DNA of 64,000 nt from an uncultured Solirubrobacterales bacterium (GCA_963816755.1 CAWFLN010000008.1:325855-389854); one strand, 5' to 3'. Positions 12,197 through 51,978 are shown, numbered from the stretch's first letter. Numbers and translations are program-made. Notes: generated by a model from the sequence alone, not told the origin.

Positions 12197-12303
12197 GGAA
12201 GCTCGGGTTCCCCTCGCTCAGAAGCCGTCGCGCAGCTGGGGCGCCCTGTCAGGGTTCGGAGCGCCTGCGCATGAGCTTCTGAGCGAGGGGAACCCGAGCC
12301 TCC
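12197..12303 (+). repeat. Family A hairpin repeat, copy A1 (sense to guaA)
   Basis: A perfect 25-nt inverted repeat (12201-12225, gctcgggttcccctcgctcagaagc, and 12275-12299) closes a 49-nt loop: cgtcgcgcagctggggcgccctgtcagggttcggagcgcctgcgcatga. The loop is conserved in copies A2-A4. Confidence 0.8.
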
Positions 12304-12413: not shown

Positions 12414-12521
12414 GGAGGGGGTCGGGAGCCTCTGCCCAGAAGCTCACGCGCCAGCACTCCGCACCCCGGCAAGCGCCCCAGCTGCGCGACGGCTTCTGGG
12501 CAGAGGCTCCCGACCCCCTCC
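12414..12521 (-). repeat. Family A hairpin repeat, copy A2 (inverted relative to A1; sense to the minus-strand ArsR gene)
   Basis: Perfect 30-nt arms at 12414-12443 and 12492-12521. The reverse complement of the loop is cgtcgcgcagctggggcgcttgccggggtgcggagtgctggcgcgtga, the same core as A1. Confidence 0.8.
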
Positions 12522-12548
12522 CCGCCAACCTCCCGTCCCAAGCACCGT

Positions 12549-38047: not shown

Positions 38048-38843
38048 ATGTACGGCCGCCTCCCGATAGTGAAGATGCTCGCCGCCACGGTCGCGATAGC
38101 CACGGCGATTTCGGCGGTGATGCTGTCGATCAACTGGGACGGCCAGGAGGCCTCGACCGCGGCTCCGAAGATCGACGACCTGCTCAACGTGATGATCGTC
38201 CTCTCGGCCTTCGTCTTCTCGCTGGTCATGGTGATGCTCTTCTACGCGTTGTGGAAATTCAAAGCCAAGCCCGGCGACGAATCCGACGGCGAGCCGATCC
38301 ACGGCAACACCCGGCTCGAGGTTGCCTGGACGCTGATCCCGACGATCATCGTCCTCTTCGGCGGCGGCTACAGCTGGAAGGTCCTGAACGAAATCGAAAA
38401 GCCCGCCAAGGACGCGATGACGGTCGACGTCTTCTCCCAGCAGTACGCCTGGAGCTTCGGCTACCCGGGCAGAGGCAACGCCTACGTCGCAGGGCGAATT
38501 CCACGTCCCGGTCAACCGTCAGATCCAGTTCAAGATGCACGCTCAGGACGTGATCCACTCCTTCTGGGTCCCCGAGTGGCGGATCAAGAAAGACAACGTG
38601 CCCGGCATCACCACGACCGCGATCGTCACCCCCGACAGGGTCGGCACCTACCAGCTGATCTGCACCGAGCTCTGCGGCTTCGGCCACGCCTCGATGCGGG
38701 CCAAGGTCGTCGTCGAGCCCCCCGGCCAGTTCCAGAAGTGGGTCGCCGGGCTGAAAGAAAAAGTCCCCCAACCCCTGATGGACTCGATCGTCCAGGACAC
38801 GCAGACCAACCCCGTCGAATCCCTTGGGGCTGGCGGGGCATAA
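38048..38843 (+). CDS. ctaC: Cytochrome c oxidase subunit II with an intact CuA site (one frameshift near 38490)
   Basis: Two TM helices are in ORF 38048... The cupredoxin domain in ORF 38535..38843 reads DVIHSFWVPEWRIKKD...ICTELCGFGHASM. Confidence 0.85.
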
Positions 38844-38856
38844 TGGAGGAGATCTG

Positions 38857-40761
38857 ATGGCGGCTGCGATCAAGCGACCGGGATGGCTTCGAGGCGCACT
38901 CGGCGCCCTCGCCTTTGCGGCATTCGGCTTCGGTCTGGTCATCGCCCTGCGGGCGATCTCCGGCCTGCCGCTCTACCAGACCGAACAGACCGGCTACCCG
39001 CACGTCGTCGTGCCGCTGATCCTGGCCCCGCTCGGCTTCCTCGCCGGCTTCGGCTGCTTCGACTACTGGCTGCGCTGGGCCGCCGGCATGCCGACGATCC
39101 CCGACGACCACTCCCAGCACGGGGCGAAGAGCTGGAAGGACTACTTCCGCTTCAACACCGACCACAAGGTGATCGGCATCCAGTACATCTGCACCACCTT
39201 CTTCTTCTTCTTCGTGGGCGGCCTGATGGCGATGCTGATCCGGGCCGAGCTGGCGCAGCCCGGCACGCAGATCGTCGATGCGGCCACCTACAACAGCCTC
39301 TTCTCCACCCACGCGGTGCTGATGATCTTCGTCTTCGTGATCCCGGTCTTCGCCGGCATCGCCAACTACGTCCTGCCGCTGATGATCGGCGCCCCGGACA
39401 TGGCCTTCCCGCGCCTCAACGCGCTCAGCTTCTGGATGCTGCCGCTCGCCGGCATCCTCTTCATCGGCAGCTTCCTGGCCCCGGGTGGCGCCTTCGACGC
39501 CGGCTGGACCGGTTACGCGCCGCTCTCCACCGGGGCGCCGCTCGGGCAGTCGTTCTTCAACCTCGGCGTTCAGTTCGCCGGTGCCTCCTCGATCGCCACG
39601 GCACTCAACTTCCTGGTCACGATCATCACCATGCGCGCCCCGGGAATGACCTTCTGGCGGATGCCGCTGCTGGTCTGGGCCAACCTCTCGACCTCGCTGC
39701 TGGTCGTCGCCGCGACGCCGTTCATCGCCGGCGCCCAGTTCATGGTCCTCTTCGACCGCATCCTCCACACCAACTTCTTCGACTTCGCCGCCGGGGGCGA
39801 CGTGATCAGTTATCAGCACATCTTCTGGTTCTACTCGCACCCAGCCGTCTACATCATGATGCTGCCCGGCTTCGGGATCATCAGCGAGGTCATCTCGACC
39901 CATGCTCGAAAGCCGATCTTCGGCTACCGGCTGATGGCCCTGGCGCTGATCGGGATCGTCGTCCTCAGCTACTCGGTCTGGGCCCACCACATGTTCGTCG
40001 CCGGCATGTTCAGCTGGCTGCGGGTGCCGATGATGCTGACCACCCTGCTGATCGCGGTGCCGACCGGGATCAAGATCTTCTCCTGGCTGGGCACGCTCTA
40101 CTTCGGCAAGATCCACACGAAATCGACGTCGATGCTGTTTGCGCTGGCCTTCATCGTCACCTTCACGATCGGCGGCATCAGCGGCGTCATGCTGGGCATG
40201 GTGCCGATCGACATCCACGTCTCCGACACCTACTTCATCGTCGCCCACATCCACTTCGTCCTCTTCGGTGGCTCCGTCTTCACGATCTTCGCCGGGATCT
40301 ACCACTGGTTCCCGAAGATCACCGGCCGCATGTACGACGAGAAACTCGGCCGGGTTCACTTCTGGGGCACGCTGATTGGGACCTGGGGCACCTTCATCCC
40401 GATGCACTGGATCGGGATGGACGGGATGCCACGGCGGGTCGCCGACTACGCCTCGCAGTTCGGCGACTGGAACCTGTTGATCAGCTGCTTCGCCTTCATG
40501 CTCGGCGCGATCCAGCTGGTCTTCCTCTACAACATGATCGTCAGCTGGCGCTTCGGCCCCCGCGCCGAGGCCAACCCGTGGCGTGCCAACTCGATCGAGT
40601 GGCTGGTCTCCTCGCCACCGCCGATCTTCAACTTCGACGAGATCCCCCGTGTCGTCGGTGGCCCCTACGAGTACGGAGTCCCCGGCGCCCGGCACGCGAT
40701 CATGGCCGGCGAAGGGGCGGAGGTGCCGGCCGGTGAGCCGAGCGTGGTGGGCTCGACGTGA
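38857..40761 (+). CDS. ctaD: Cytochrome c oxidase subunit I, A2-type (YS motif), with an N-terminal extension of about 90 aa containing two TM helices
   Basis: ATG 38857 follows GGAGGA, inside intact ORF 38824..40761. All six His ligands are present: STHAVLMIF, FWFYSHPAVY, WAHHMF and AHIHFVLFGG. YSHPAVY replaces GHPEVY, which indicates the A2 subfamily. Confidence 0.95.
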   Translation: MAAAIKRPGWLRGALGALAFAAFGFGLVIALRAISGLPLYQTEQTGYPHVVVPLILAPLGFLAGFGCFDYWLRWAAGMPTIPDDHSQHGAKSWKDYFRFNTDHKVIGIQYICTTFFFFFVGGLMAMLIRAELAQPGTQIVDAATYNSLFSTHAVLMIFVFVIPVFAGIANYVLPLMIGAPDMAFPRLNALSFWMLPLAGILFIGSFLAPGGAFDAGWTGYAPLSTGAPLGQSFFNLGVQFAGASSIATALNFLVTIITMRAPGMTFWRMPLLVWANLSTSLLVVAATPFIAGAQFMVLFDRILHTNFFDFAAGGDVISYQHIFWFYSHPAVYIMMLPGFGIISEVISTHARKPIFGYRLMALALIGIVVLSYSVWAHHMFVAGMFSWLRVPMMLTTLLIAVPTGIKIFSWLGTLYFGKIHTKSTSMLFALAFIVTFTIGGISGVMLGMVPIDIHVSDTYFIVAHIHFVLFGGSVFTIFAGIYHWFPKITGRMYDEKLGRVHFWGTLIGTWGTFIPMHWIGMDGMPRRVADYASQFGDWNLLISCFAFMLGAIQLVFLYNMIVSWRFGPRAEANPWRANSIEWLVSSPPPIFNFDEIPRVVGGPYEYGVPGARHAIMAGEGAEVPAGEPSVVGST

Positions 40762-41633
40762 GCGCCACCGACGAGGGCCGGCCGCTGCTGGTCTTTCTCA
40801 ACGAGGTCGCCGGTGGGCGCAAGTTGCTGCAGGCGGTCCGCGAGCGCCAGGACAAGGTTTCCGGCGTTGTCGTCGCGGCGCCGCAGAATCAGCCGTCGGT
40901 TGGCCAGTTGATCGACTCCGGCGAGCTGCGCAAGGCCGCCCGTGCCAGGGTCGAGGTGACGATGTCGGTGCTGAGCGAGTTCGGCATCGACTCGGTCGGC
41001 GAGGTGATGGACCCCGAGCCCTCGCTGGCGGTTTCCGACGCCGTCCGCGCTCATGAACCGGGTGAGGTCCTGCTGTCCTGCCTCCATGACACGCGCTTTG
41101 GCTTGACTCGCAAAGACCTGGTCGAGTGGGTGCGCGACCGGATCGAACCGGAGACGAAGCTGACCCATATCCCGGTTCGGATCGAAGACGATGCGATCCG
41201 CTGGGACCTGATCCACACCCTCGTCGTCGCCACCAAGACCGTGGCGGCCCCCGACCTGGTCAACCGCCTCAAGGAGCGCGCCGCCGACCGGGCCCACCGT
41301 TACACGATCGTCTGCCCGCAGACCGTCGACGTCAGTGAGGCCGAGATCGTCGCTGACCTCGCTTCGACGCTCGCCGAGCTCTACCGGGCCGACGTCGACG
41401 CGACCGGGCAGCCGATCAGCCCCGATCCCTTCCAGGCGGTCAAGAACGCGATCGAGCACTACCGGATCGACGAGGTACTGATCTCGACCTTCGCGGGCGA
41501 GGACTCGCGCTGGCTCGAGGAGGACCTGATCGGGCGGGTGCGCGAGATCACCGAGAAGCAGGTCGAGCACATCGAGGTGGGTCGTCCGGCGGCTGCCGTC
41601 GCCGCCGCCGTGGCCGACGGAGGGGAGGCCTGA
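40758..41633 (+). CDS. Tandem-duplicated USP-like alpha/beta domain protein inserted between ctaD and ctaE
   Basis: Intact ORF 40758..41633 overlaps the ctaD stop (GTGA) and the ctaE start (TGATG). Its two halves align to each other: LLVFLNEVAGGRKLLQAVRER with TLVVATKTVAAPDLVNRLKER, and GEVMDPEPSLAVSDAVRAHEPGEVLLSC with GQPISPDPFQAVKNAIEHYRIDEVLIST. Confidence 0.6.
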   Translation: MSATDEGRPLLVFLNEVAGGRKLLQAVRERQDKVSGVVVAAPQNQPSVGQLIDSGELRKAARARVEVTMSVLSEFGIDSVGEVMDPEPSLAVSDAVRAHEPGEVLLSCLHDTRFGLTRKDLVEWVRDRIEPETKLTHIPVRIEDDAIRWDLIHTLVVATKTVAAPDLVNRLKERAADRAHRYTIVCPQTVDVSEAEIVADLASTLAELYRADVDATGQPISPDPFQAVKNAIEHYRIDEVLISTFAGEDSRWLEEDLIGRVREITEKQVEHIEVGRPAAAVAAAVADGGEA

Positions 41634-42259
41634 TGGAGAGCGCAACGGTAGCCCTCGGACACGATCACCCCGAGGAGCATCACGGCCCGCCGGAGGCCAA
41701 CCAGAGCTCGCGCATCGACAAACAGACGCTCGGGATCCTGCTTTTCATCGTCTCCGAGGTGATGCTGTTCGGTGCCTTCTTCGCCTCCTATTTCTTCCTC
41801 CGCATCGTCGTCAACCCGTCCGCCTGGCCGCCGCACCCGTACGAACTGCCGGTCGCCGTCGCCGGCGTCAACACGGCGATCCTGGTTTCCTCGAGCTTCA
41901 CGGTCCACTACGCCCTGGAGGCCATCCGGCGTGGGAATCGCCAGGGGATGAAACTCGGCCTGATGCTCACCTGGATGCTGGGGGCGACCTTCCTCTTCAT
42001 CCAGATCAACGAGTACGTCCACCTTGGCTTCAGCGCCCGCGATCTCTCCTTCGGCTCGATCTTCTACGGCCTCACCGGCCTCCACGGCGCCCACGTGTTC
42101 GTCGGCCTGATGCTGCTCAGCTTTGCGACGATCCGCGCCTTCCGCGGCCACTTCGGCCCCGAGGCGAAGGACCATCTCGGCGTCGAGGTGCCGGGGATCT
42201 ACTGGCATTTTGTCGACGTCATGTGGCTGATCGTCTACGTAAGCGTCTATATCCTTTAG
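41633..42259 (+). CDS. ctaE: Cytochrome c oxidase subunit III
   Basis: Intact ORF 41633..42259 reads LGILLFIVSEVMLFGAFFASYF...FYGLTGLHGAHVFVGL...YWHFVDVMWLIVY. Confidence 0.9.
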   Translation: MESATVALGHDHPEEHHGPPEANQSSRIDKQTLGILLFIVSEVMLFGAFFASYFFLRIVVNPSAWPPHPYELPVAVAGVNTAILVSSSFTVHYALEAIRRGNRQGMKLGLMLTWMLGATFLFIQINEYVHLGFSARDLSFGSIFYGLTGLHGAHVFVGLMLLSFATIRAFRGHFGPEAKDHLGVEVPGIYWHFVDVMWLIVYVSVYIL

Positions 42260-42660: not shown

Positions 42661-42939
42661 ATGGCGGTCATGAGAGAGATGTGGAGCGACGACCGGCTCG
42701 ATGGGCTGAACAGGCGGGTCGACGATGGATTTGCACTTGTGGACGAGCGCTTTGAGCAGATGGACAAGCGCTTTGAGCAGATGGGCGACCGCCTCGACCG
42801 GTTCGAAGATCAGCTGGGCCAGGTGAACGTCCGTCTCGACGGCATACAGCAGACGTTGGTCCAGGCCGTCGTCGCGTTCTACGCCACCGCGGTCGCCTGC
42901 TTCGTCGCGATCATCGGCTTGATCCTCGCGCAGGCCTGA
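42661..42939 (+). CDS. Coiled-coil, tail-anchored membrane protein (92 aa), hypothetical
   Basis: ORF 42661..42939 contains the repetitive segment ERFEQMDKRFEQMGDRLDRFEDQLGQV, then a C-terminal TM helix AVVAFYATAVACFVAIIGLILA. Confidence 0.45.
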   Translation: MAVMREMWSDDRLDGLNRRVDDGFALVDERFEQMDKRFEQMGDRLDRFEDQLGQVNVRLDGIQQTLVQAVVAFYATAVACFVAIIGLILAQA

Positions 42940-43696
42940 CCGCACCTCGGGTGGATAGGTCGAGGATCGCCAGCGTCAGTGCGATCGGGACGGTCGCGGG
43001 CAGCTCCTCGACGGCGAAGAAGAGCAGGTCGAAGCCGAGGCAGAGGGCGACCGCCAGCACGGTTCCGCGCAGCTGCAGGCGCCGGTCGCCGGCGAGCAGG
43101 GCACCGAGGGTGGCGGCGATGAAGAGGTCGCCGAAGCCCATCACGGCGGAGCCGAAGGAGACGAGCTGGAGGCGGGGCAGGCCGCCGGGCGAGACGGTGT
43201 TGAGGACGGCGTTCGGGCCCTGAAGCAGGTCGGAGGCGACCAGCCAGGTGTCGATCGCTGCCATCGCGTAGATCCCCAGCTTCAACCAGCGGCCGGGGAC
43301 GACGCAGACCAGCAGCCAGCCGAGGCTGACGCAGGCCAAGGCAGACAGCGCCAACGCTGCCGTCTGACCCGCCACCGAGCCCCTGGCGGCCCAGGCAAGG
43401 GCGAAGAGCGGGATGACCAGCAGGGCCAGTAGTGGGCGGCCTCCGCGGGCGACGGCGGCCAGCGCCAGCGCCGCCAGCGGCGGGACCGCGACCAGGGCGA
43501 GGTAGGTGAGGAAGTGGGCGCTTGCCGAGTCGAGGGCGATCGCCGCGACCACCACCGCGATCGAGAGTGGCGGCACCAGCGCCCACCAGTTGCTGCGGAT
43601 GCCGTTCAGGAGCGGGTTCGCGGCGGGCCTGGGCACCGCCACGAGGGCCGCCTGCACGAGGCTGAGGATGCTGATCGAGAGGGCGAACGGGAGCAT
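42911..43696 (-). CDS. Polytopic membrane protein with a GxGD motif (putative presenilin/SPP-like intramembrane aspartyl protease)
   Basis: Intact ORF 42911..43696 has about 8 hydrophobic segments. It carries ...AMAAIDTWLV..., ...AVMGFGDLFIAATLG... and ...ELPATVPIAL..., in the order expected for the Asp / GxGD / PAL-like motifs. Confidence 0.45.
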   Translation of the reverse strand: MLPFALSISILSLVQAALVAVPRPAANPLLNGIRSNWWALVPPLSIAVVVAAIALDSASAHFLTYLALVAVPPLAALALAAVARGGRPLLALLVIPLFALAWAARGSVAGQTAALALSALACVSLGWLLVCVVPGRWLKLGIYAMAAIDTWLVASDLLQGPNAVLNTVSPGGLPRLQLVSFGSAVMGFGDLFIAATLGALLAGDRRLQLRGTVLAVALCLGFDLLFFAVEELPATVPIALTLAILDLSTRGAVRPARGSSR

Positions 43697-43760: not shown

Positions 43761-44741
43761 TCAGCTGGCGGCCGCCGGCTCGGCCTTCGAGGGCTCCGCG
43801 GGCTCGCCGCCTGCCGGAGCGGCTCCCGGACGAGGCTCGAGCCGTCCGGCGGCGGCCACCGTCCAGAGCATCGCCAGCCAATTGCAGGTGGCGAGCGCGA
43901 CGTGGACCCAGACGATCTCGGTCGGCAGTTCCAGCCACCACTGGAGCCCTCCTACGGCTCCCTGCAGCGCCAGTAGGCCCAGGACCACCGTCAACGGCCT
44001 CTCGGCCCTCCTGTCGCCTCCTGGACGGCGGAGGAGGAACCAGACGCCGATCGCCGCGAGGCCGTAGACGGTGGCGATCGCCGCATGGCGCTCGACGACC
44101 CATTCCAGCGTCCTGGCGCCCTCGAAGGTGAAGCGGTGGACGAGCTGGCCGGCGTGGGCGCCGGCGTGCGGGCCGGAGGCGGTTGCGATCGTCCCCGCCA
44201 GGATCGTCAGCTGGCCGAGTGGGATCAGGGCCCGCACCGACCAGACGCCGAGCCGGTCGCTGGAGTGCCGCCGCTCCCACGGTTCATAACGCGAGCACCA
44301 GGCCAGCGCGAAGGACGCGTCGAGCAGCATCATCGAGAGGATGAAGTGGGACATCACCAGCCCCGGCGCCAGGTGGTACTTGACGACCAGGGCGCCGAGG
44401 ATCGCCTGGCCGATCACCCCCAGCGGCAGCAGGGCGCCGAACAGCGCCAGGTGCCAGCGGTAGGGCCGCCGGAAGAAGGCGAGGACGCTGGCGGCGATCA
44501 CGACGAAGCCGACGAAGCCGGTCAGCAGGCGGTTGCCGTACTCGATGACGGCGTGGGATTCGAGCGGCGGCGCCGTGCCGCCGTAGCACTTGGGCCAGTC
44601 CGGGCAGCCCAGCCCGGAGCCGGTGAGGCGGACGCCGGCGCCGGTGAGGACGATCAGCGCCAGCGCGCCAAGGGCAACTGCCGCCACCTGTGCGTAGCGC
44701 TCCCGGGAGATCTCGAAGCGGTCTTTGAGGCGTTCCCGCAT
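43761..44741 (-). CDS. ctaA: Heme A synthase (COX15/CtaA)
   Basis: Intact ORF 43761..44741 reads TGAGVRLTGSGLGCPDWPKCYG...IEYGNRLLTG...HAGAHAG.. and contains conserved His residues in TM helices. Confidence 0.85.
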   Translation of the reverse strand: MRERLKDRFEISRERYAQVAAVALGALALIVLTGAGVRLTGSGLGCPDWPKCYGGTAPPLESHAVIEYGNRLLTGFVGFVVIAASVLAFFRRPYRWHLALFGALLPLGVIGQAILGALVVKYHLAPGLVMSHFILSMMLLDASFALAWCSRYEPWERRHSSDRLGVWSVRALIPLGQLTILAGTIATASGPHAGAHAGQLVHRFTFEGARTLEWVVERHAAIATVYGLAAIGVWFLLRRPGGDRRAERPLTVVLGLLALQGAVGGLQWWLELPTEIVWVHVALATCNWLAMLWTVAAAGRLEPRPGAAPAGGEPAEPSKAEPAAAS

Positions 44742-45666: not shown

Positions 45667-46068
45667 ATGCAGGTGAGGGACGGGATGTCGGAGGTGTCGC
45701 TGACCGTGGGGCCGTCGCACACCCTGCGCGAGGCCGCCGCGATGATGGTCGAGAAGGGGACGGGCGCCGCGTTGGTCAGCGACACCGAGTCGCCGACGCC
45801 GGGAATCGTCACCGAGCGCGATCTGCTGACCTCGGTCGGCGGTGGCGAGGACCCCGATGTCGAGCTGGTCGCCGATCACATGAGCGAGAGCGTGATCGCC
45901 GCCGCGCCGGATTGGAGCTTGGAGCGTGCCGCCGCGGAGATGTCCCGTCGCGGTGTCCGCCACCTGGTCGTCTTCGAGCAGGCCGAGCTGGTCGGCGTGC
46001 TCTCGATGCGCGACATCGTCAGGGTTTGGACGAGCGATGGCGCCACCTCGGGGATGACGCCGGGCTGA
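45667..46068 (+). CDS. CBS domain pair protein
   Basis: ORF 45667..46068 reads ...GTGAALVSD...GIVTERDLL...HMSESVIAA...RGVRHLVVFEQAELVGVLSMRDIV. Confidence 0.8.
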   Translation: MQVRDGMSEVSLTVGPSHTLREAAAMMVEKGTGAALVSDTESPTPGIVTERDLLTSVGGGEDPDVELVADHMSESVIAAAPDWSLERAAAEMSRRGVRHLVVFEQAELVGVLSMRDIVRVWTSDGATSGMTPG

Positions 46069-46254
46069 GGAGGCGTGGAGCCGGTGGTGCTGTCCGGCTG
46101 CCAGCGGGCTGCCGCGCTCGATGTCCTCGCGAGTTGAGCTGCATCGCCTCGTCGGGCGACGCGGCGTGACGAGCGTAGTGGCATGGGATGTGCACCATGC
46201 CAATCTCTTGCCGACTGACCCACGTTTGCCGAGCACTACCGGACGATCGCCCGC

Positions 46255-46656
46255 CTAGTCTGCCCACCAGTCGCGCTGGCCGGCGACGTCTTCGCGCGGA
46301 GTCTCACCGAGATTGGGCGCGCCGATGACGAGGATCTCGAGGCCCTCCGGCCCGGCCTCGTAGCCTCGCCACGTGCCGGGCGGGACGCGCACCGCGTCCC
46401 ACTCCTTGAGCTCGACGATCTCGTCGTCGAGCTTCATCCGCCCGCTCCCGCGCAGGACCACGTACACCTCCTCCTGCGTCTTGTGCGTGTGGCCGTACGG
46501 AAAGCGATAGCCAGGCGGGACGCGCTGCCAGCTCAGGCCGGATTTCTCGAGTTCGAGCGCCTCGGTCGCCGCGCGGAACTCCAGGCCCGGCGCGCCGTCG
46601 AACCTAGAGCCGAGGTCCTCCAGATCCCCCTTGAGGTTCCTGAGCGTGAACGGCAC
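46255..46656 (-). CDS. Cupin domain protein
   Basis: ORF 46255..46656 reads ...PYGHTHKTQEEVYVVLRGSGRMKLDDEIVELKEWDAVRVPPGTWRGYEAG... Confidence 0.75.
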   Translation of the reverse strand: MPFTLRNLKGDLEDLGSRFDGAPGLEFRAATEALELEKSGLSWQRVPPGYRFPYGHTHKTQEEVYVVLRGSGRMKLDDEIVELKEWDAVRVPPGTWRGYEAGPEGLEILVIGAPNLGETPREDVAGQRDWWAD

Positions 46657-46767
46657 CGCGCAATCCTATGGTGCCGCGCAGGACGTGCCAATCGCGCTAT
46701 GTAACTTCGCCACCGGCCGCGCGGGCTCCTTCAACCCGGTTTCTGATCGTACTTGCGGACAGCTCTG

Positions 46768-47055
46768 CTAGTCGTTCAGGGTGATCTGTTCGACTGGCAG
46801 GGCGGCGCTCCGCACCTGCTGTCGGCGCGGCAGGCGGAAGTAATCGCGGATCGCACCGCGGACGAGGCCGCGGAAGGCCGCGATGACGAGGATCGCGCCG
46901 ACGACGGCGTAGACGATCGGCGGGAAGATGAAGCCGGCCGCGTAGATCCCGCCGACCAGGCCGAGCAGGCCGAGGGCGAGGAAGGCCGGCGCCCAGGAGG
47001 GCTTTGGCGTGTAGACCATCTCGCCGGGCTCGGGGACGTGTCGGTGCTCGCTCAT
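46768..47055 (-). CDS. Small two-TM membrane protein (95 aa), hypothetical
   Basis: ORF 46768..47055 reads APAFLALGLLGLVGGIYAAGFIFPPIVYAVVGAILVIAAF. It starts 4 nt after the stop of the 37-aa ORF. Confidence 0.5.
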   Translation of the reverse strand: MSEHRHVPEPGEMVYTPKPSWAPAFLALGLLGLVGGIYAAGFIFPPIVYAVVGAILVIAAFRGLVRGAIRDYFRLPRRQQVRSAALPVEQITLND

Positions 47056-47058
47056 CGT

Positions 47059-47172
47059 CTACTGGGCGATGTAGAGGAAGGCGACGACGAAGGAAAGGGC
47101 GAAGATCGCCGCGGCGAAGCCGCCGGCGACCAGCCCGGCCCGCATGTTCTTCCTTGCGATCTCGCGGTCCAT
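47059..47172 (-). CDS. Candidate single-TM micro-protein (37 aa)
   Basis: ATG 47172, within the frame of ORF 47059..47403, reads MDREIARKNMRAGLVAGGFAAAIFALSFVVAFLYIAQ. Confidence 0.3.
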   Translation of the reverse strand: MDREIARKNMRAGLVAGGFAAAIFALSFVVAFLYIAQ

Positions 47173-47221
47173 GGCCTGGATTTCTATCAAGCGGGGGGGA
47201 AGTCGGGGTGGCCTGCCTCGG

Positions 47222-47328
47222 GGGGGAGCCGGGTGCCACTCCCACGAAGGCCGTCGCGCAGCTGGGTCGCGTGTCAGGGTTCGGATGCCTGTCCATGAGC
47301 CTTCGTGGGAGTGGCACCCGGCTCCCCC
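47222..47328 (+). repeat. Family A hairpin repeat, copy A3
   Basis: Perfect 30-nt arms at 47222-47251 (gggggagccgggtgccactcccacgaaggc) and 47299-47328. The loop cgtcgcgcagctgggtcgcgtgtcagggttcggatgcctgtccatga is very similar to the A1 loop. Confidence 0.8.
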
Positions 47329-47427
47329 GGCGAAGCCGACACTCCGATTCCCCGAAAGCTCCCGTCTCACATCAGCTTCCGCCCACAAAGCCGCCGATCT
47401 CACCGAAGCTCGTCAGGGATTCGTGAG

Positions 47428-47530
47428 GTCGGCCGGGTGTCCCTCCCCCGCAGGCTCCCGGACAGACGTCCGAACCCTGGCAAGCGACCCAGCTGCGCGA
47501 CGGCCTGCGGGGGAGGGACACCCGGCCGAC
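47428..47530 (-). repeat. Family A hairpin repeat, copy A4 (inverted; sense to ctaB transcript)
   Basis: Perfect 28-nt arms at 47428-47455 (gtcggccgggtgtccctcccccgcaggc) and 47503-47530. The reverse complement of the loop is cgtcgcgcagctgggtcgcttgccagggttcggacgtctgtccggga. Confidence 0.8.
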
Positions 47531-47570
47531 CCGCGCCAACCCCTCACGAGCCCCCGCCAGATCGCCCCGG

Positions 47571-48494
47571 CTACACGTGGGCGTCGATTGCCATCGCCAG
47601 GAAGAGCAGGGCCAGATAGGCAAGCGAGAAGAGGTAGGTGCGCAGGGCCCAGCTGCGGTCGGCCGTGCGCAGCAGCTTCGTCGAGCAGTAGATGAAGCCG
47701 GCGCCGAGCGCCATCGAGGGCACCAGGTAGGCGACGCCGAGGCCGCCGGCACAGAAGGGCAGCTGGGTGACCGCGTAGAGGAGGACCGTGTAGAGGAGGA
47801 TCTGGCGCCGGGTCTCGTCCTCGCCCCGCACCACCGGGAGCATCGGGATGCCGGCCTTGGCGTACTCGTCCTTCATCAGCAGCGAGAGCGCCCAGAAGTG
47901 GGGCGGCGTCCAGAAGAAGACGATCGCGAAGAGGAAGAAGGCCATGCCGCTGAGCCCGCCCGTCACCGCCGCCCAGGCGACCAGCGGCGGCACCGCGCCG
48001 GCGGCGCCGCCGATGACGATGTTCTGGGGGGTGCTGCGCTTGAGCCAGAGCGTGTAGACGAAGACGTAGCCGAGCAGGCCGGAGAGCGAGAGTGCCGCCG
48101 CCAGGGGGTTGACGGTCAGCGCCAGCAGCGCGAACGAGGCGCAGCCGAGCAGCGTCCCGAAGGCGATCGCGGCGGTGGGGGAGATGCGGCCGGAGGCGAC
48201 GGGGCGATCGGCGGTGCGGGCCATCATCCGGTCGATGTCGCGGTCGATCGCGTGGTTGATCGCGCCGGCGCCGCCGGCGGAGAGGGCGCCGCCGAGGCAG
48301 GTGAGGAAGATCAGGCCGAGCGAGGGGTCGCCGGCGACGTACATCGTCGTCACCGTCGTGAACAGCAGCAGCGACTGCACCTTCGGCTTGGTCAGCGTCA
48401 GGTAGTCGCGGACCGCCGTCATCGCGGCGGAGCGCGGGGCAGGTGCGGCTGCCGTCGGGGTGGGCGCGGTCTGCGCGCCGCCGCCGGCCATCAC
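47571..48494 (-). CDS. ctaB: Protoheme IX farnesyltransferase (heme O synthase)
   Basis: Intact ORF 47571..48494 reads YLTLTKPKV...GAGAINHAIDRDIDRMMARTADRP...NIVIGGAAGAVPPL...FFWTPPHFWALS. Confidence 0.9.
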   Translation of the reverse strand: MMAGGGAQTAPTPTAAAPAPRSAAMTAVRDYLTLTKPKVQSLLLFTTVTTMYVAGDPSLGLIFLTCLGGALSAGGAGAINHAIDRDIDRMMARTADRPVASGRISPTAAIAFGTLLGCASFALLALTVNPLAAALSLSGLLGYVFVYTLWLKRSTPQNIVIGGAAGAVPPLVAWAAVTGGLSGMAFFLFAIVFFWTPPHFWALSLLMKDEYAKAGIPMLPVVRGEDETRRQILLYTVLLYAVTQLPFCAGGLGVAYLVPSMALGAGFIYCSTKLLRTADRSWALRTYLFSLAYLALLFLAMAIDAHV

Positions 48495-48564
48495 TCAGGT
48501 TCGCGCTTCTCTCGCTGCGCGAAGAACCGGATATGCACGCTTGCTCGCTCCGCGCTCACGCCGG

Positions 48565-50250
48565 TCAGGCTACCGGCTGGCGCCCGCGGGCAGGCCGCTC
48601 GCCGCGGCCGCTGCGATGGGCGATCGCCTCGCGAATGTCGCGCATCGGCCGGGCGCTGCGGACATCGGGCAGCACGTCGAAGTTGTGGGGCTCGGGCGGC
48701 GACAGCGCGAACCACTCGAGCGACTCGCCGTGCCACGGGTCGTGACCGGCCGCAGGGCCGCCCTCGCGGCTGAGGATTGCGTTGACGATGGTCATCACGA
48801 TCCCGGCGGCGAGGACGAAGGTGCCGATCGTGGCGATCAGGTTGTACGCGTCGACGCCGGTGCCGGCGAAGAACTTGTAGGCGTCGATCACCTGGCCCTG
48901 CTCGGCGCCGGCGAGGAAAAGGGGCACGAAGGCGACGAGGATTCCGATCGCCATCGTCCAGAAGGAGAGGCGGGCCAGGTTCTCGCCCATCGTCCGCCCG
49001 GTCATCTTCGGGAACCAGTAGTGCAGCGCGGCAAAGCCGCCGAAGACGGCACCGCCGATCAGCGCGAAGTGGGTGGCGGCGGTGGCGTCGGTGGTGTTCT
49101 TGAGATCCCAGGCGGCGCCGACCATCGACTGCTCGATCTCGGCTCCGAGGCCGACCGAGATCGCCGAGATCGCGCCGATCGCGAACAGCAGCGGCGCCCG
49201 CATCCGCAGCGCTCCGCCGATCATGGTCGCGATCAGGTTGAAGACGACCAGGCCGAAGGGCACGATCAGCGCCAGCGACATCAGCATCGCGAAGTACATC
49301 CAGCCGATCCCGATCGGCGCGGTCATCATGTTCTGCATCCAGGCCAGGGTGCCGAGCACGGCGATCGCGGCCAGCGACCCCATCACGACGCCGCGGTTGA
49401 AGAGCGGCTTGGCGGAGAAGGCTGTGACGATTTCGGCGATCGCGCCGAGCGCGAAGATCAGGATCAGCATGTAGGCGCCGGAGAAGAAGATCCAGCTCAG
49501 GTGCTGCCAGAGCAGCGGTGCGCCGCCGGACCCGTCGGCGAAGAAGACGCCGTCGTAATTGCGGTCGATCATCAGCATCGTCAGCGCCGCCAGCAGCACC
49601 GGCCCGATCACCAGCATCAGCCAGCAGCCGACCGTGGCCGCCCAGGCGAAGACGGGCAGCCGCCGCCAGGCCATGCCGGGAGCGCGCATGTTGCGCAGCG
49701 TCGTCAGCAGGTCGATCGCCAGGAAGACGAAGCCGAGGGTTGCCAGGCCGGTGGCGGTGGCCCAGGCATCGACCCCGTTGTTGGAGAGGAAGGCCAGCTC
49801 GCTGAGTGGCGCCAGCGGATTGACACCCGCCTCGGAGGGCGTGAACAGGAAGCCGGCGTAGAGCACCGTGGCGCCGGCCGCGAAGAGGGCCATGCCGAGC
49901 TGCCCGAGGCGCGGCAGGGCGGTGCCGCGAGCGCCGACCTGCAGCGGCGCCACGTAATAGAAGAAGCCGAGCACGAGCGGGATCGCGAAGAAGAAGATGG
50001 CGGTCGCGCCGTAGGTGGAGAGCATCCGGTTGAAGCCCACCGGGGAGAGGAAGCTGTTCTCCGGCACCGCCAGCTGCAGCCGCATCAGCAGCAGCTCGAC
50101 CGCGGCGAGGAAGAGGAAGCCGAGCGAGCCGCAGATCAGGATCCGGCCGATGTCCTTGTGGTCGGCGCTGGTTGCCAGCTCGATCCAGCGCGGGCGGGGC
50201 TTGCCCGGGAAGCCGTCGACGACGAGCTCGGGGCGTGGCGTCTCGCTCAT
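48565..50250 (-). CDS. Heme-copper oxidase subunit I paralogue lacking 5 of 6 canonical His metal ligands
   Basis: Intact 561-aa ORF, collinear with CtaD (ADHKDIG, NMRAPGM, HYWFPK, SLEW). At the ligand positions it reads STYGATAIF (His to Tyr), WIFFSGAYML (His to Ser), AWMQNMM (His-His to Gln-Asn) and AATHFALIGG (first His to Ala). Confidence 0.85.
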   Translation of the reverse strand: MSETPRPELVVDGFPGKPRPRWIELATSADHKDIGRILICGSLGFLFLAAVELLLMRLQLAVPENSFLSPVGFNRMLSTYGATAIFFFAIPLVLGFFYYVAPLQVGARGTALPRLGQLGMALFAAGATVLYAGFLFTPSEAGVNPLAPLSELAFLSNNGVDAWATATGLATLGFVFLAIDLLTTLRNMRAPGMAWRRLPVFAWAATVGCWLMLVIGPVLLAALTMLMIDRNYDGVFFADGSGGAPLLWQHLSWIFFSGAYMLILIFALGAIAEIVTAFSAKPLFNRGVVMGSLAAIAVLGTLAWMQNMMTAPIGIGWMYFAMLMSLALIVPFGLVVFNLIATMIGGALRMRAPLLFAIGAISAISVGLGAEIEQSMVGAAWDLKNTTDATAATHFALIGGAVFGGFAALHYWFPKMTGRTMGENLARLSFWTMAIGILVAFVPLFLAGAEQGQVIDAYKFFAGTGVDAYNLIATIGTFVLAAGIVMTIVNAILSREGGPAAGHDPWHGESLEWFALSPPEPHNFDVLPDVRSARPMRDIREAIAHRSGRGERPARGRQPVA

Positions 50251-50945
50251 GGCACTTCTCCGTTTTCGATCAGCCCCACGACCCGTTCCTGGGCCGCCTC
50301 GATGTCGGCTTTCTGCTGCTTGAGGAAGGCTTCGTAGGCCGGCGGCGAGACGACGTCGACTTCGGTCCGCATCGCCGAGTAGGCCTGGCCGGAGAGGGTC
50401 GCCGCCTGGCCGTCGTACCTGCCTTCTTCGTCAGCCCGGAAGACGACGTTGCTGACCTTGCCCGGCACCGCGTCGCGCTTGGCTGCGAGGTCGGGCACGT
50501 TCCAGGTATGGACGACGTCGGTGGAGAGGAGTTCGAGGTCGACGGCGGTATTGGCCGGGACGACCAGCTTGTAGTAGGAGAAGGAGCCGTTCGGGTACTG
50601 GTAGCGCCATAGCCACTGCTGACCCGTCGCTTTGATCGTCAGCGGCGCGGTCTTGGCGGCGGCGAGCCCGGCGGAGCCGGTCGCGGGCGTCTCCTGGGCC
50701 TTGTCGGTGAAGACGATGCTGAGCACGAAGATCGCCGCGGCGAAGGCGGTGAGGACGGCGCCGACCCGGAACTGGACGCGGCGACCGCCGCCGGCCTGGC
50801 TTGGCTGGGCGCCGCGCTCGGCGCGATTTCGGCGTACGGCGTAGATCAGTGCGACGTTGATCGCGACCACGACTATCGCCGCGGCGACGAAGCCGATCCA
50901 AAGCAGAGTGTCGATCTGGTCAGTGCCAGGGGAGTGCGGCGCCAA
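50247..50945 (-). CDS. Heme-copper oxidase subunit II paralogue without CuA ligands
   Basis: Intact ORF 50247..50945 overlaps the subunit I-like start (ATGA). It has two TM helices plus a cupredoxin-like domain (QQWLWRYQYPNG...DVVHTWNVPD). The CuA motif is GQAATLSGQAYSAM, versus ICTELCGFGHASM in ctaC. Confidence 0.8.
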   Translation of the reverse strand: MAPHSPGTDQIDTLLWIGFVAAAIVVVAINVALIYAVRRNRAERGAQPSQAGGGRRVQFRVGAVLTAFAAAIFVLSIVFTDKAQETPATGSAGLAAAKTAPLTIKATGQQWLWRYQYPNGSFSYYKLVVPANTAVDLELLSTDVVHTWNVPDLAAKRDAVPGKVSNVVFRADEEGRYDGQAATLSGQAYSAMRTEVDVVSPPAYEAFLKQQKADIEAAQERVVGLIENGEVP

Positions 50946-51033
50946 AGCGCGGCCATTCTAATCACGCCGGGCGGCCATCGGGCGGCGGGCCGACTCTCCC
51001 GCCCCCCGGCGCCTACCTATACTCGCCGACCCT

Positions 51034-51978
51034 ATGAAGAGGCACTCCCGGCCATCACCCGCGCTTCGACTCGCGGTGCGGACAGGTGCGGCCGGTCTTG
51101 TCGGTGCCGCAATCGCGGTCCCCTTGCTGCGTCGGCGGCTGCGGATACCGGCGCCGGCGACCGTGGCGGCTTGTGCCGGCGGGCCACTCGCCCTCGCCGT
51201 CCTCTTTCCCCGCTCCAAGAAGCGCGACGTCGCCCTCTACGCGATACAGATGTGGGCTTTCATCATGGTCCACGAGATTCCCTATGACGACCCGGAGCGA
51301 CTGCGCAGCCGTCTGCGCAGCCGCTACCCGATCGTCGCCGACCGCGCTCTGGGTGCCGGCAAGCTGCCGGGAGCCCGCCTTCAGCGCGCCCTCGCGCGGC
51401 TGCCGCGGGTCCGCCTGATCGACCGCGTCCTCACCTGGACCCACTGGCTCTGGTTCTTCGAGCCGTACCTGGCGCTGGCCTTCGTCCTGGTCCGCAACAA
51501 CGAGCGCTTCCCACGGGCCGCCCGCCGCATGGCGGCTGTCTTCGACCTCGGCTGCGTCGTCTACTTCGCGCTGCCGACGGCGCCGCCCTGGTGGGCCTCC
51601 GAGCAGGACCTGACCGGCGAGGACGTGCGCCGGATCATGGTCGAGGTCGGCGAGGACACCTGGGGCTCGGCCTGGCCGAAGATGTACGAGGCGCTTGGCG
51701 GCAACCCCTGGGCGGCGATGCCCTCGCTGCACTTCGCCACCTCGGTGGTGGCCGCGCTCTCGCTGGCTGAAGCGGGCAGGGTCGAGGGGACGATCGGCTG
51801 GAGCTACGCGCTGACGCTCGGCTTCGGGCTCGTCTACCTGGGCGAGCACTACGTCACCGATCTGGCCGCCGGAGCTCTGCTCGTGGTGGTCGTGCGGCGT
51901 GGCGAGCCGTTGGTCGAGCCCCTCGTTTCCGGGGTAAACGGAGTGCTGCAGCGCTTGGAGAGCATCGCCAGCGGGTAG
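51034..51978 (+). CDS. PAP2 superfamily membrane protein (inositol-phosphoceramide synthase/AUR1-like subgroup)
   Basis: Intact ORF 51034..51978 reads ...PPWWASE...AAMPSLHFATS...YLGEHYVTDLAAG (PAP2 C2/C3-type SxH and HxxxD motifs). Confidence 0.65.
   Translation: MKRHSRPSPALRLAVRTGAAGLVGAAIAVPLLRRRLRIPAPATVAACAGGPLALAVLFPRSKKRDVALYAIQMWAFIMVHEIPYDDPERLRSRLRSRYPIVADRALGAGKLPGARLQRALARLPRVRLIDRVLTWTHWLWFFEPYLALAFVLVRNNERFPRAARRMAAVFDLGCVVYFALPTAPPWWASEQDLTGEDVRRIMVEVGEDTWGSAWPKMYEALGGNPWAAMPSLHFATSVVAALSLAEAGRVEGTIGWSYALTLGFGLVYLGEHYVTDLAAGALLVVVVRRGEPLVEPLVSGVNGVLQRLESIASG

Follow-up and report, generated by a model that had tools for sequence, protein, structure and literature searches.

A stretch of 64,000 nucleotides from an uncultured Solirubrobacterales bacterium (GCA_963816755.1 CAWFLN010000008.1:325855-389854), in the following called the window, carries directly upstream of the heme O synthase gene ctaB two genes for homologues of oxidase subunits II and I, which are designated X2 and X1. 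Heme-copper oxidases are defined by six histidines. One of these is left in X1, and X2 has lost its CuA site. From the alignments, the pair is predicted to lack canonical binding of heme a, heme a3-CuB and CuA. As both the sites and the proton channels are lost, X2-X1 should therefore neither pump protons nor reduce O2, the latter in agreement with the original prediction, which had been made from the DNA of the window. At the same time, the comparison of orthologues indicates purifying selection on the pair, which is maintained in at least 80 species. It is classified as a pseudoenzyme derivative of an A-family oxidase.

Ligand positions in X1 and X2

Both open reading frames (ORFs) were recovered by the ORF listing where they had been predicted (Table 1). 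X1 is matched by the Pfam family COX1 (PF00115) with an E-value of 2e-82 over profile positions 2-436 of 436, and reaches 363 bits on the CtaD model TIGR02891, the cutoff of which is 670. Its ligand positions were mapped by a MAFFT alignment with bovine COX1 and the CtaD of the window as well as by HMMER alignments to solved actinobacterial CtaD proteins, and the two maps agree. The low-spin heme position H61 is taken by Y80, H240 by S257, the pair H290/H291 by Q306 and N307, and H376 by A392. H394, corresponding to H378, is the sole ligand histidine retained out of six, as had been predicted, and the alignment placed no further histidine. The cross-link tyrosine Tyr244 had been described as not kept, and in the ungapped alignment its position is indeed occupied by M261. 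A small correction is necessary here, since an invariant tyrosine (Y260) is found at position -1. A gapped alignment is able to pair Y260 with Y244, which is irrelevant because His240 is gone.

Further losses, not described before, are D91 (G109), N80 (tyrosine), N98 (glycine) and W126 (valine). The K-channel lysine K319 is replaced by V335, with valine, isoleucine or leucine among the orthologues, and E242 is replaced by alanine without a YS motif. The heme-propionate pair R438/R439 is missing whichever way that loop is aligned. On the pocket side, residues were mostly swapped for smaller ones, namely M65 and H376 for alanine besides the W126 exchange already mentioned. The residue R57, which is invariant among the orthologues, corresponds to bovine R38, the bond partner of the formyl group of heme a. 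Among the canonical positions that are at least 90% conserved in subunit I, X1 has kept 27 of 48. The kept ones are structural prolines, glycines and tryptophans and loop arginines, whereas the lost ones are cofactor contacts. Judged by the six invariant histidines, X1 falls outside the catalytic heme-copper oxidases, while by its fold it belongs to the superfamily. It lacks all features of an A-family O2 reductase, i.e., the His-Tyr cross-link, the K-channel lysine, the Asp and Asn of the D-channel, and Glu242 or the YS motif.

Several other assignments were considered for X1. A nitric oxide reductase (NOR), either of the cNOR/qNOR type or of the newer NOR families, was rejected, since the heme and FeB ligands are gone, and NOR-type matches were not found in NCBIfam or Pfam. 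A relocation of the ligands to neighbouring residues was rejected by a census of histidine, cysteine and methionine over the orthologues. Three transmembrane histidines are invariant (H31, H250 and H394), each at a position that canonical oxidases also have, and no cysteine is; therefore, no shifted ligand set can rebuild the sites. Proton or ion conduction via the canonical D- or K-paths was also rejected, because their key residues are lost. The suggestion of a repurposed ion-conducting module in the original prediction is not supported, for this reason and for the lack of a common polar replacement pattern in related lineages (see below).

X2 is matched by Pfam COX2 (8e-20) and scores 135 bits on the CoxB model TIGR02866, under its cutoff of 147.7. 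From the CuA set, H146 and Met192 are kept, whereas the first cysteine is replaced by alanine or serine, the glutamate by threonine, the second cysteine by S185 and the histidine by Y189. The predicted loss of both cysteines and this histidine was thereby confirmed, and X2 does not carry the motif of a CuA subunit II (H...C-x-E-x-C-x3-H-x2-M). The same holds across 80 orthologues: H146 and the methionine are present in 80/80, Cys196 is replaced by serine or alanine, Cys200 by serine in 79/80 and His204 by tyrosine in 80/80. A CuA-less quinol oxidase was rejected, since the models for CyoA (TIGR01433, 61 bits, cutoff 266) and QoxA (TIGR01432, 53 bits, cutoff 241) stay far under their cutoffs and the partner X1 has no heme ligands.

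Conservation and descent of the pair

A search of 5.8 billion proteins returned more than 120 clusters at 84-91% identity to X1, which are nearly all 560-562 amino acids (aa) long, with one partial sequence of 554 aa. In a scan with one genome per species, relatives of X1 were found in 525 genomes. The best 80 of these are all metagenome-assembled genomes (MAGs) of Solirubrobacterales or Thermoleophilia with 78-88% identity to X1; residue counts on X1 refer to 81 orthologous sequences. The X1 orthologue is uninterrupted in 80/80 species loci, three of which are truncated at a contig end. The replacement pattern seen in the window recurs throughout: Y80, Y260, Q306, N307 and H394 are invariant (81/81), position 257 is always serine or threonine (81/81), and position 392 is alanine in 78/81. 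In total, 177 of the 561 positions of X1 are invariant.

The ratio of nonsynonymous to synonymous substitution rates (dN/dS), calculated against the window by the method of Nei and Gojobori (NG86), is 0.32 for X1, 0.35 for X2 and 0.27 for ctaB. Over the 80 loci, X1 has a median identity of 82%, compared with 87% for ctaB, 85% for ctaA, 88% for ctaE, 75% for cytochrome c and 77% for PAP2. The agreement of 80 independent genomes led to the rejection of a sequencing or indel artefact, and X1 as a pseudogene was rejected on the dN/dS value, the fixed length and the invariant residues. Both points are in line with the original prediction, which had regarded the pair as neither an artefact nor a decaying pseudogene.

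The fold of X1 was modelled with AlphaFold2, which gave a predicted local distance difference test score (pLDDT) of 88, a predicted template modelling score (pTM) of 0.90 and 12 long helices. In a Foldseek comparison with solved A-type subunits I, the model reached template modelling (TM) scores of 0.85-0.91, with a root-mean-square deviation of about 1.5-2.5 Å for most of them. According to the model, X1 has retained the A-type subunit I fold.

A HMMER search of 1.84 billion representatives followed by a tabulation of the ligands turned up many further COX1 homologues with incomplete ligand sets. Besides the close orthologues, there are lineages with 33-51% identity to X1 in which the ligands were lost to differing degrees. 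Written in the order H61, H240, Y244, H290, H291, H376 and H378, their signatures are FSVQSTF for P0122 (51% identity to X1), LTFLNSW for P0125 (45%), HHLLRYG for P0127 (37%), SHLTTHQ for P0142 (36%), HQVQHWN for P0175 (35%), NQGRHQG for P0158 (34%) and HTWNEAH for P0156 (34%). No replacement residues and no polar pattern common to these degenerate lineages were found. Therefore, it is the scaffold that is conserved across the lineages and not a new active site; a shared new active site was rejected on this ground.

Two of these lineages show partial losses of a different kind. In P0156 (L085, 6001-9904) both histidines of the low-spin heme are kept, whereas the CuB and heme a3 ligands are gone; a COX3-like gene, a gene for an unknown protein of 330 aa and a thioredoxin-like protein follow, and an intact caa3 operon is adjacent. 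In P0127 (L084, 3378-8406) the CuA motif of subunit II is intact, and subunit I has only two of the six histidines. Both look like intermediate or independent stages of decay.

A metagenome scan yielded no close relatives of the P0127 lineage. It did return 80 COX1 loci with 31-39% identity to P0127; taken as an unbiased sample, these brought a canonical sister group to light. Twelve fully liganded loci of this sample, the oxidases of which are uncharacterised, carry the order COX2-COX1-ctaB, and a neighbour-joining tree places them as sister to the degenerate clade as a whole. With these liganded sisters X1 shares 39-41% identity, with the CtaD of its own genome only 29%. Downstream of ctaB the sisters code for a peptide of 35-37 aa and a two-helix protein of 77-90 aa. 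One flank of these operons consists of TrxR, LPG-synthase-like and PAP2 genes, the opposite flank of a CBS-domain gene plus a second oxidase; in L098 and L101 this second oxidase is an orthologue of the CtaD of the window, with 66-68% identity to it. The sister subunit I is of the classical A1 type with E242, K319, D91, R438/R439 and W126, and the sister subunit II has the full CuA motif. Gene order and tree indicate that X2-X1 is the positional orthologue and remnant of a second, once functional A1-type aa3 oxidase, and that an ancestor had two oxidases, one of which turned metal-free. The term paralogue, which had been used for the pair before, is correct within the genome, but in evolutionary terms it is to be replaced by positional orthologue of that second oxidase.

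Linkage to ctaB and possible roles

The ctaB gene of the window, a member of the UbiA family, codes for a heme O synthase by both applicable models (NF003349, 360 bits, cutoff 246; TIGR01473, 336 bits). The stop codon of X2 overlaps the start codon of X1 (ATGA), with GGAG upstream, and a scan of the X2-X1-ctaB cluster found no terminator-like or promoter-like sites above the expectation from shuffled sequences. From this layout, X2-X1 is predicted to be translationally coupled and is co-directional ahead of the heme O synthase gene. Over the 80 loci the order does not vary, with TrxR(-), LPG-synthase-like(-) and PAP2(-) on one flank, X2, X1, ctaB, a 37-aa peptide and a two-helix protein of about 95 aa in the core, and CBS(-) followed by cytochrome c, ctaA ... 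ctaE on the other flank. In 51 close loci ctaE is reached, and a working oxidase is nearby there; this also applies to the degenerate loci of L084 and L085.

The original prediction had left open whether ctaB is always adjacent. It adjoins X1 in all 77 close orthologous loci that reach far enough (77/77), and among ten more distant lineages with contigs read, it is linked in nine. The order COX2-like, COX1-like, ctaB is found on the contigs of P0122, P0125, P0142, P0158 and P0175. On the P0127 contig ctaA is inserted between COX1-like and ctaB, and on the P0156 contig a divergent ctaA(-) is followed by ctaB, COX1-like and COX3-like, i.e., ctaB lies upstream. P0131, which has kept all six histidines, and P0132 show COX1 followed by ctaB. 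The exception is P0184, an unrelated degenerate protein beside a caa3 operon without ctaB. The ctaB genes of six other degenerate lineages score 319-392 bits, all above the heme O synthase cutoff. P0158 and P0175 represent unrelated contexts, in which X2-X1-ctaB is kept and no oxidase is found within 6 kb.

The adjacency of ctaB had been taken as a hint to a role in heme o/a handling. Since the liganded sisters share the order COX2-COX1-ctaB followed by two small genes at the same position, this adjacency is inherited, and the hint is weakened. What stands is that the linkage has survived two independent rearrangements (P0127 and P0156), which argues for a functional coupling.

On this basis X2-X1 is tentatively regarded, at somewhat less than an even chance, as a cofactor-free pseudo-oxidase scaffold that partners CtaB and CtaA in the synthesis and hand-off of heme O and heme A. 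This reading draws on the loss of the sites with retention of the fold, on the selection, on the descent of the pair and its linkage to ctaB, and on a precedent from yeast. The pair would be co-produced with CtaB and the two small subunits, and CtaB (and CtaA) would find in it a lasting surface that resembles apo-subunit I. Such a surface might stabilize or activate heme O/A synthesis and could aid the hand-off of the heme to the remaining A2-type oxidase CtaCDE. A stricter version is less probable: the widespread actinobacterial X1/X2 clade could have lost its cofactors altogether and have persisted over long evolutionary spans as an obligate platform for the heme O (and A) synthase, a permanent mimic of apo-Cox1 that would license and channel heme O/A production for another oxidase.

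Three observations weigh against the scaffold. The adjacency to ctaB is ancestral, and inertia or the use of the X2-X1 promoter or translational coupling for the expression of ctaB could preserve the linkage without any partnership. Furthermore, Y80 and H394, present in 81/81 at the former low-spin site, are compatible with one bound heme in the subclade. Finally, at deep divergences X1 and X2 share 35-50% identity compared with 53-70% for ctaB. They diverge faster than ctaB, and the constraint on them is therefore relaxed relative to a working oxidase, yet persistent.

Among the alternatives, a non-catalytic structural subunit of the respiratory chain, which would be a partner of the A2 oxidase or of a bc-aa3 supercomplex and unrelated to CtaB, survives best, although it is unlikely. 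It would account for the retention of the fold and of conserved loop and interface segments with a loss of the cofactor contacts only, and for a selection on the scaffold, as expected without a new motif common to the degenerate lineages. The proximity of a working oxidase in the window, in 51 close loci and in L084 and L085 speaks for it, and the adjacency of ctaB can be accounted for by ancestry alone. However, X1/X2 is tied physically to the active oxidase by nothing, the rearrangements spare the linkage to ctaB and not that to ctaCDE, and P0158 and P0175 keep the cluster without a nearby oxidase.

Less probable again is that X1 of the subclade binds a single heme via His394 and Tyr80 and acts as a heme O/A store, a carrier or a one-heme redox protein. 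Proteins that transfer heme typically ligate it by His/Tyr, and the two invariant residues are located exactly at the positions of H61 and H378. The invariant R57 is consistent with a bound heme as well, the smaller pocket residues leave cavities which are not obviously filled, and the P0156 lineage has kept both low-spin histidines. On the other hand, the propionate-anchoring arginine pair and W126 are lost, and degenerate sister lineages with the same operon carry F/F (P0122) or L/W (P0125) at the two positions; therefore, heme ligation is not general to the wider clade.

A neofunctionalized X1, in which the former binuclear-centre pocket would bind a new ligand or ion in a transporter, a receptor or a new enzyme, is rather improbable. 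S/T257, Y260, Q306, N307, E371, T390 and T393 are invariant or nearly so in the 81 sequences, and a buried invariant glutamate such as E371 is unusual. Nevertheless, none of these polar residues recurs in the other degenerate lineages that have the operon, X1 has neither canonical proton path left, and it was matched only by oxidases in the family and structure searches. A functionless pair, i.e., relic ORFs kept for the promoter or translation of ctaB, or an assembly artefact, is very improbable. In its favour are the inherited gene order, the faster change of X1/X2 over deep time and at least one frameshift in the window (ctaC). Against it, the 561 + 232 codons stay open in each of 80 independent species-level genomes, as well as in lineages with as little as 33-45% identity; dN/dS is 0.32-0.35, 177 positions are invariant, and nearly all of more than 120 clusters share a length of 560-562 aa.

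Neighbouring features of the window

The genes and elements of the cluster and of the genuine oxidase are listed in Table 1.

Table 1. Coordinates of X2-X1, the associated cluster and the oxidase genes, counted from the first nucleotide of the window
Feature	Position	Strand	Remarks
X2, subunit II homologue	50247..50945	-	232 aa; two transmembrane helices and cupredoxin domain; CuA site destroyed
X1, subunit I homologue	48565..50250	-	561 aa; full 12-helix fold; one of six His ligands left; no proton-channel residues
ctaB, heme O synthase	47571..48494	-	70 nt downstream of X1, same strand
Palindromic hairpin element, copy 2	47417..47535		ctaB/micro-ORF spacer; 29-nt perfect inverted arms; -91 kcal/mol as minus-strand RNA
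Palindromic hairpin element, copy 1	47219..47337		ctaB/micro-ORF spacer; 30-nt perfect inverted arms; -85.5 kcal/mol
Micro-ORF	47059..47172	-	37 aa, single transmembrane helix; MDREIARKNMRAGLVAGGFAAAIFALSFVVAFLYIAQ; between ctaB and the ~95-aa gene
95-aa protein	46768..47055	-	two transmembrane helices; last conserved cluster gene
Cupin-domain gene	46255-46656	-	between the 95-aa gene and the CBS gene; Pfam Cupin_2 1e-10
ctaA, heme A synthase	43761..44741	-	Pfam COX15-CtaA 1.5e-24; syntenic in 60 loci
261-aa ORF	42911-43696	-	polytopic membrane protein; adjoining ctaA
ctaE, subunit III	41633..42259	+	5-helix form without helices I-II
291-aa ORF	40758-41633	+	between ctaD and ctaE
ctaD of the genuine oxidase	38857..40761	+	all six His, Tyr, K319, D91 and R438/R439 present
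ctaC of the A2-type oxidase	38048..38843	+	CuA motif ICTELCGFGHASM; split by 1-nt frameshift near 38490-38497

The micro-ORF downstream of ctaB was found on the coding strand in 65/93 loci (62 distinct sequences), which are the loci reaching far enough past ctaB. Other tblastn matches were spurious, being located inside X2 in loci that end after ctaB. The length is nearly always 37 aa (36-38), and the start codon is ATG or GTG. The peptide of the window matches Coa3_cc (PF09813) with 17.4 bits (E 0.0034), the gathering score being 27 bits, and weak matches to this family were obtained for 11/31 members (best E 9e-4), all below the Pfam cutoff. The liganded sister operons also code for it behind ctaB. 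The peptide is a candidate for a bacterial oxidase subunit or assembly peptide that has escaped recognition, the resemblance to Coa3 being a lead only.

The 95-aa protein is conserved in 62 loci with a median identity of 70%, and homologues are encoded in the P0122, P0125 and P0127 lineages and in the liganded sister operons. Its profile gave sub-threshold matches in the PDB to the actinobacterial oxidase polypeptide 4 (E 0.094) and to residues 8-65 of COX3 (E 0.4-0.8), and Pfam Cyt_c_ox_IV matches 6/24 members weakly (best E 0.0027). The COX3 helices I-II that are weakly matched are the two helices which the ctaE of the window lacks. The protein is possibly an equivalent of subunit IV or of helices I-II of subunit III, which is a lead rather than a finding.

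The hairpin elements between ctaB and the micro-ORF belong to a family of about 110 nt with two further copies in the window, at about 12204-12296 and 12417-12522. Related elements are present in the same spacer of 11 orthologous loci, and because of their insertion the spacing between ctaB and the small genes varies from 136 to 654 nt. They look like repetitive extragenic palindromic (REP) elements or miniature inverted-repeat transposable elements (MITEs) and could modulate the expression within the operon. An Rfam scan of 46000-51300 returned only a spurious sub-threshold microRNA match, which lies on the hairpin element.

The cupin-domain gene has a promoter-like site at 46691..46663. It is absent from this position in 80/80 orthologous loci and is therefore an insertion specific to the genome of the window.

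A canonical A2-type oxidase elsewhere in the window, as previously described, was identified as ctaC, ctaD and ctaE at 38048-42259(+), with ctaC frameshifted. Its N-terminal part is read in one frame ('...FGYPGRGNAYVAG') and the C-terminal CuA part in another ('...QGEFHVPVNRQIQFKMHAQDVIHSFWVPEW...ICTELCGFGHASM'; window 38470-38545). The frameshift is probably an assembly indel in a sequence of 71% GC; if it were real, the active oxidase of the organism would be broken. The CtaD of the window matches Pfam COX1 with 3e-150 and scores 657 bits on TIGR02891, and the Pfam COX3 match of ctaE is limited to profile positions 77-255 of 258. A dihaem cytochrome c is also encoded in the window. The 291-aa and 261-aa ORFs have no Pfam matches and may code for lineage-specific oxidase subunits or assembly factors.

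Comparison with known systems

No curated family for the X2-X1 clade exists in NCBIfam or Pfam, in accordance with the original prediction, in which no described family had been recognised. X1-type entries are labelled 'cytochrome c oxidase subunit I' or 'cbb3-type ...' in the source databases. Automated annotation overcounts the terminal oxidases of Thermoleophilia and related soil Actinomycetota, which affects metabolic inference from MAGs. A description of a ligand-less heme-copper oxidase was not found in the open-access literature, where absence is not proof. A survey of the diversity of these oxidases describes altered active sites and no ligand-less members (PMC11214002), and a review of assembly factors does not mention them (PMC9145763).

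The graded series of related lineages, from six histidines down to none, stays linked to heme O synthase throughout and is a natural experiment on the oxidase scaffold apart from catalysis. If the link to CtaB were physical, it would make the mechanism of heme O/A hand-off in oxidase biogenesis accessible to experiment. If the platform reading were true, no cofactor-less member of the superfamily would have had a defined role before X2-X1, which would also give a genetically separable handle on heme A delivery.

By sequence and structure, the best matches of X1/X2 are the CtaC/CtaD proteins of the A1-type aa3 oxidases of Actinomycetota (Mycobacterium tuberculosis 8hcr, Mycobacterium smegmatis 6adq/6hwh and Corynebacterium glutamicum 7q21), with an E-value of 1e-82 and TM scores of about 0.9. 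Both share a subunit I with 12 helices, a subunit II with two helices and a cupredoxin domain, and many structural prolines, glycines, tryptophans and arginines. In contrast to these oxidases, X1/X2 has lost five of the six histidines, the cross-link tyrosine, K319, D91, R438/R439 and both cysteines of CuA. A further similar system is cyoABCDE of Escherichia coli, in which the genes of the bo3 quinol oxidase are co-transcribed with that of a heme O synthase. CyoA and CyoB are recognisable homologues, and subunit II lacks CuA there as well. However, CyoB, with all six histidines and both hemes in place, actively pumps protons, which does not apply to X1, and X2 scores higher against CoxB (135 bits) than against CyoA (61 bits).

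Altered active sites that do not reduce O2 have been described for the eNOR, bNOR, sNOR, gNOR and nNOR families (Murali et al. 2024; PMC11214002). These keep the metal-ligating site and lack the cross-link tyrosine, with an aspartate replacing one metal-ligating histidine in gNOR (PMC11214002), whereas in X1 the heme ligands themselves are lost.

For the proposed role there are functional precedents in mitochondria. For its oligomerisation, the heme O synthase Cox10 of yeast requires freshly made Cox1, in the form of apo-Cox1 intermediates (PMC7140478), and the way in which heme A gets into subunit I is not yet understood (PMC9145763). The activation of Cox10 as well as Surf1/Shy1 and Coa3 can be regarded as such precedents for X1, the coupling of Cox10 being known from yeast only. 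Surf1/Shy1 and Coa3 share no homology with X1, and the match of the micro-ORF to Coa3 is below threshold. In complex III of mitochondria, the core 1 and core 2 proteins are inactive peptidases of the mitochondrial processing peptidase (MPP) type that are kept as structural subunits. They belong to a different protein family from X1/X2 and are comparable by analogy only, as a case in which the fold has stayed under selection after the loss of catalysis.

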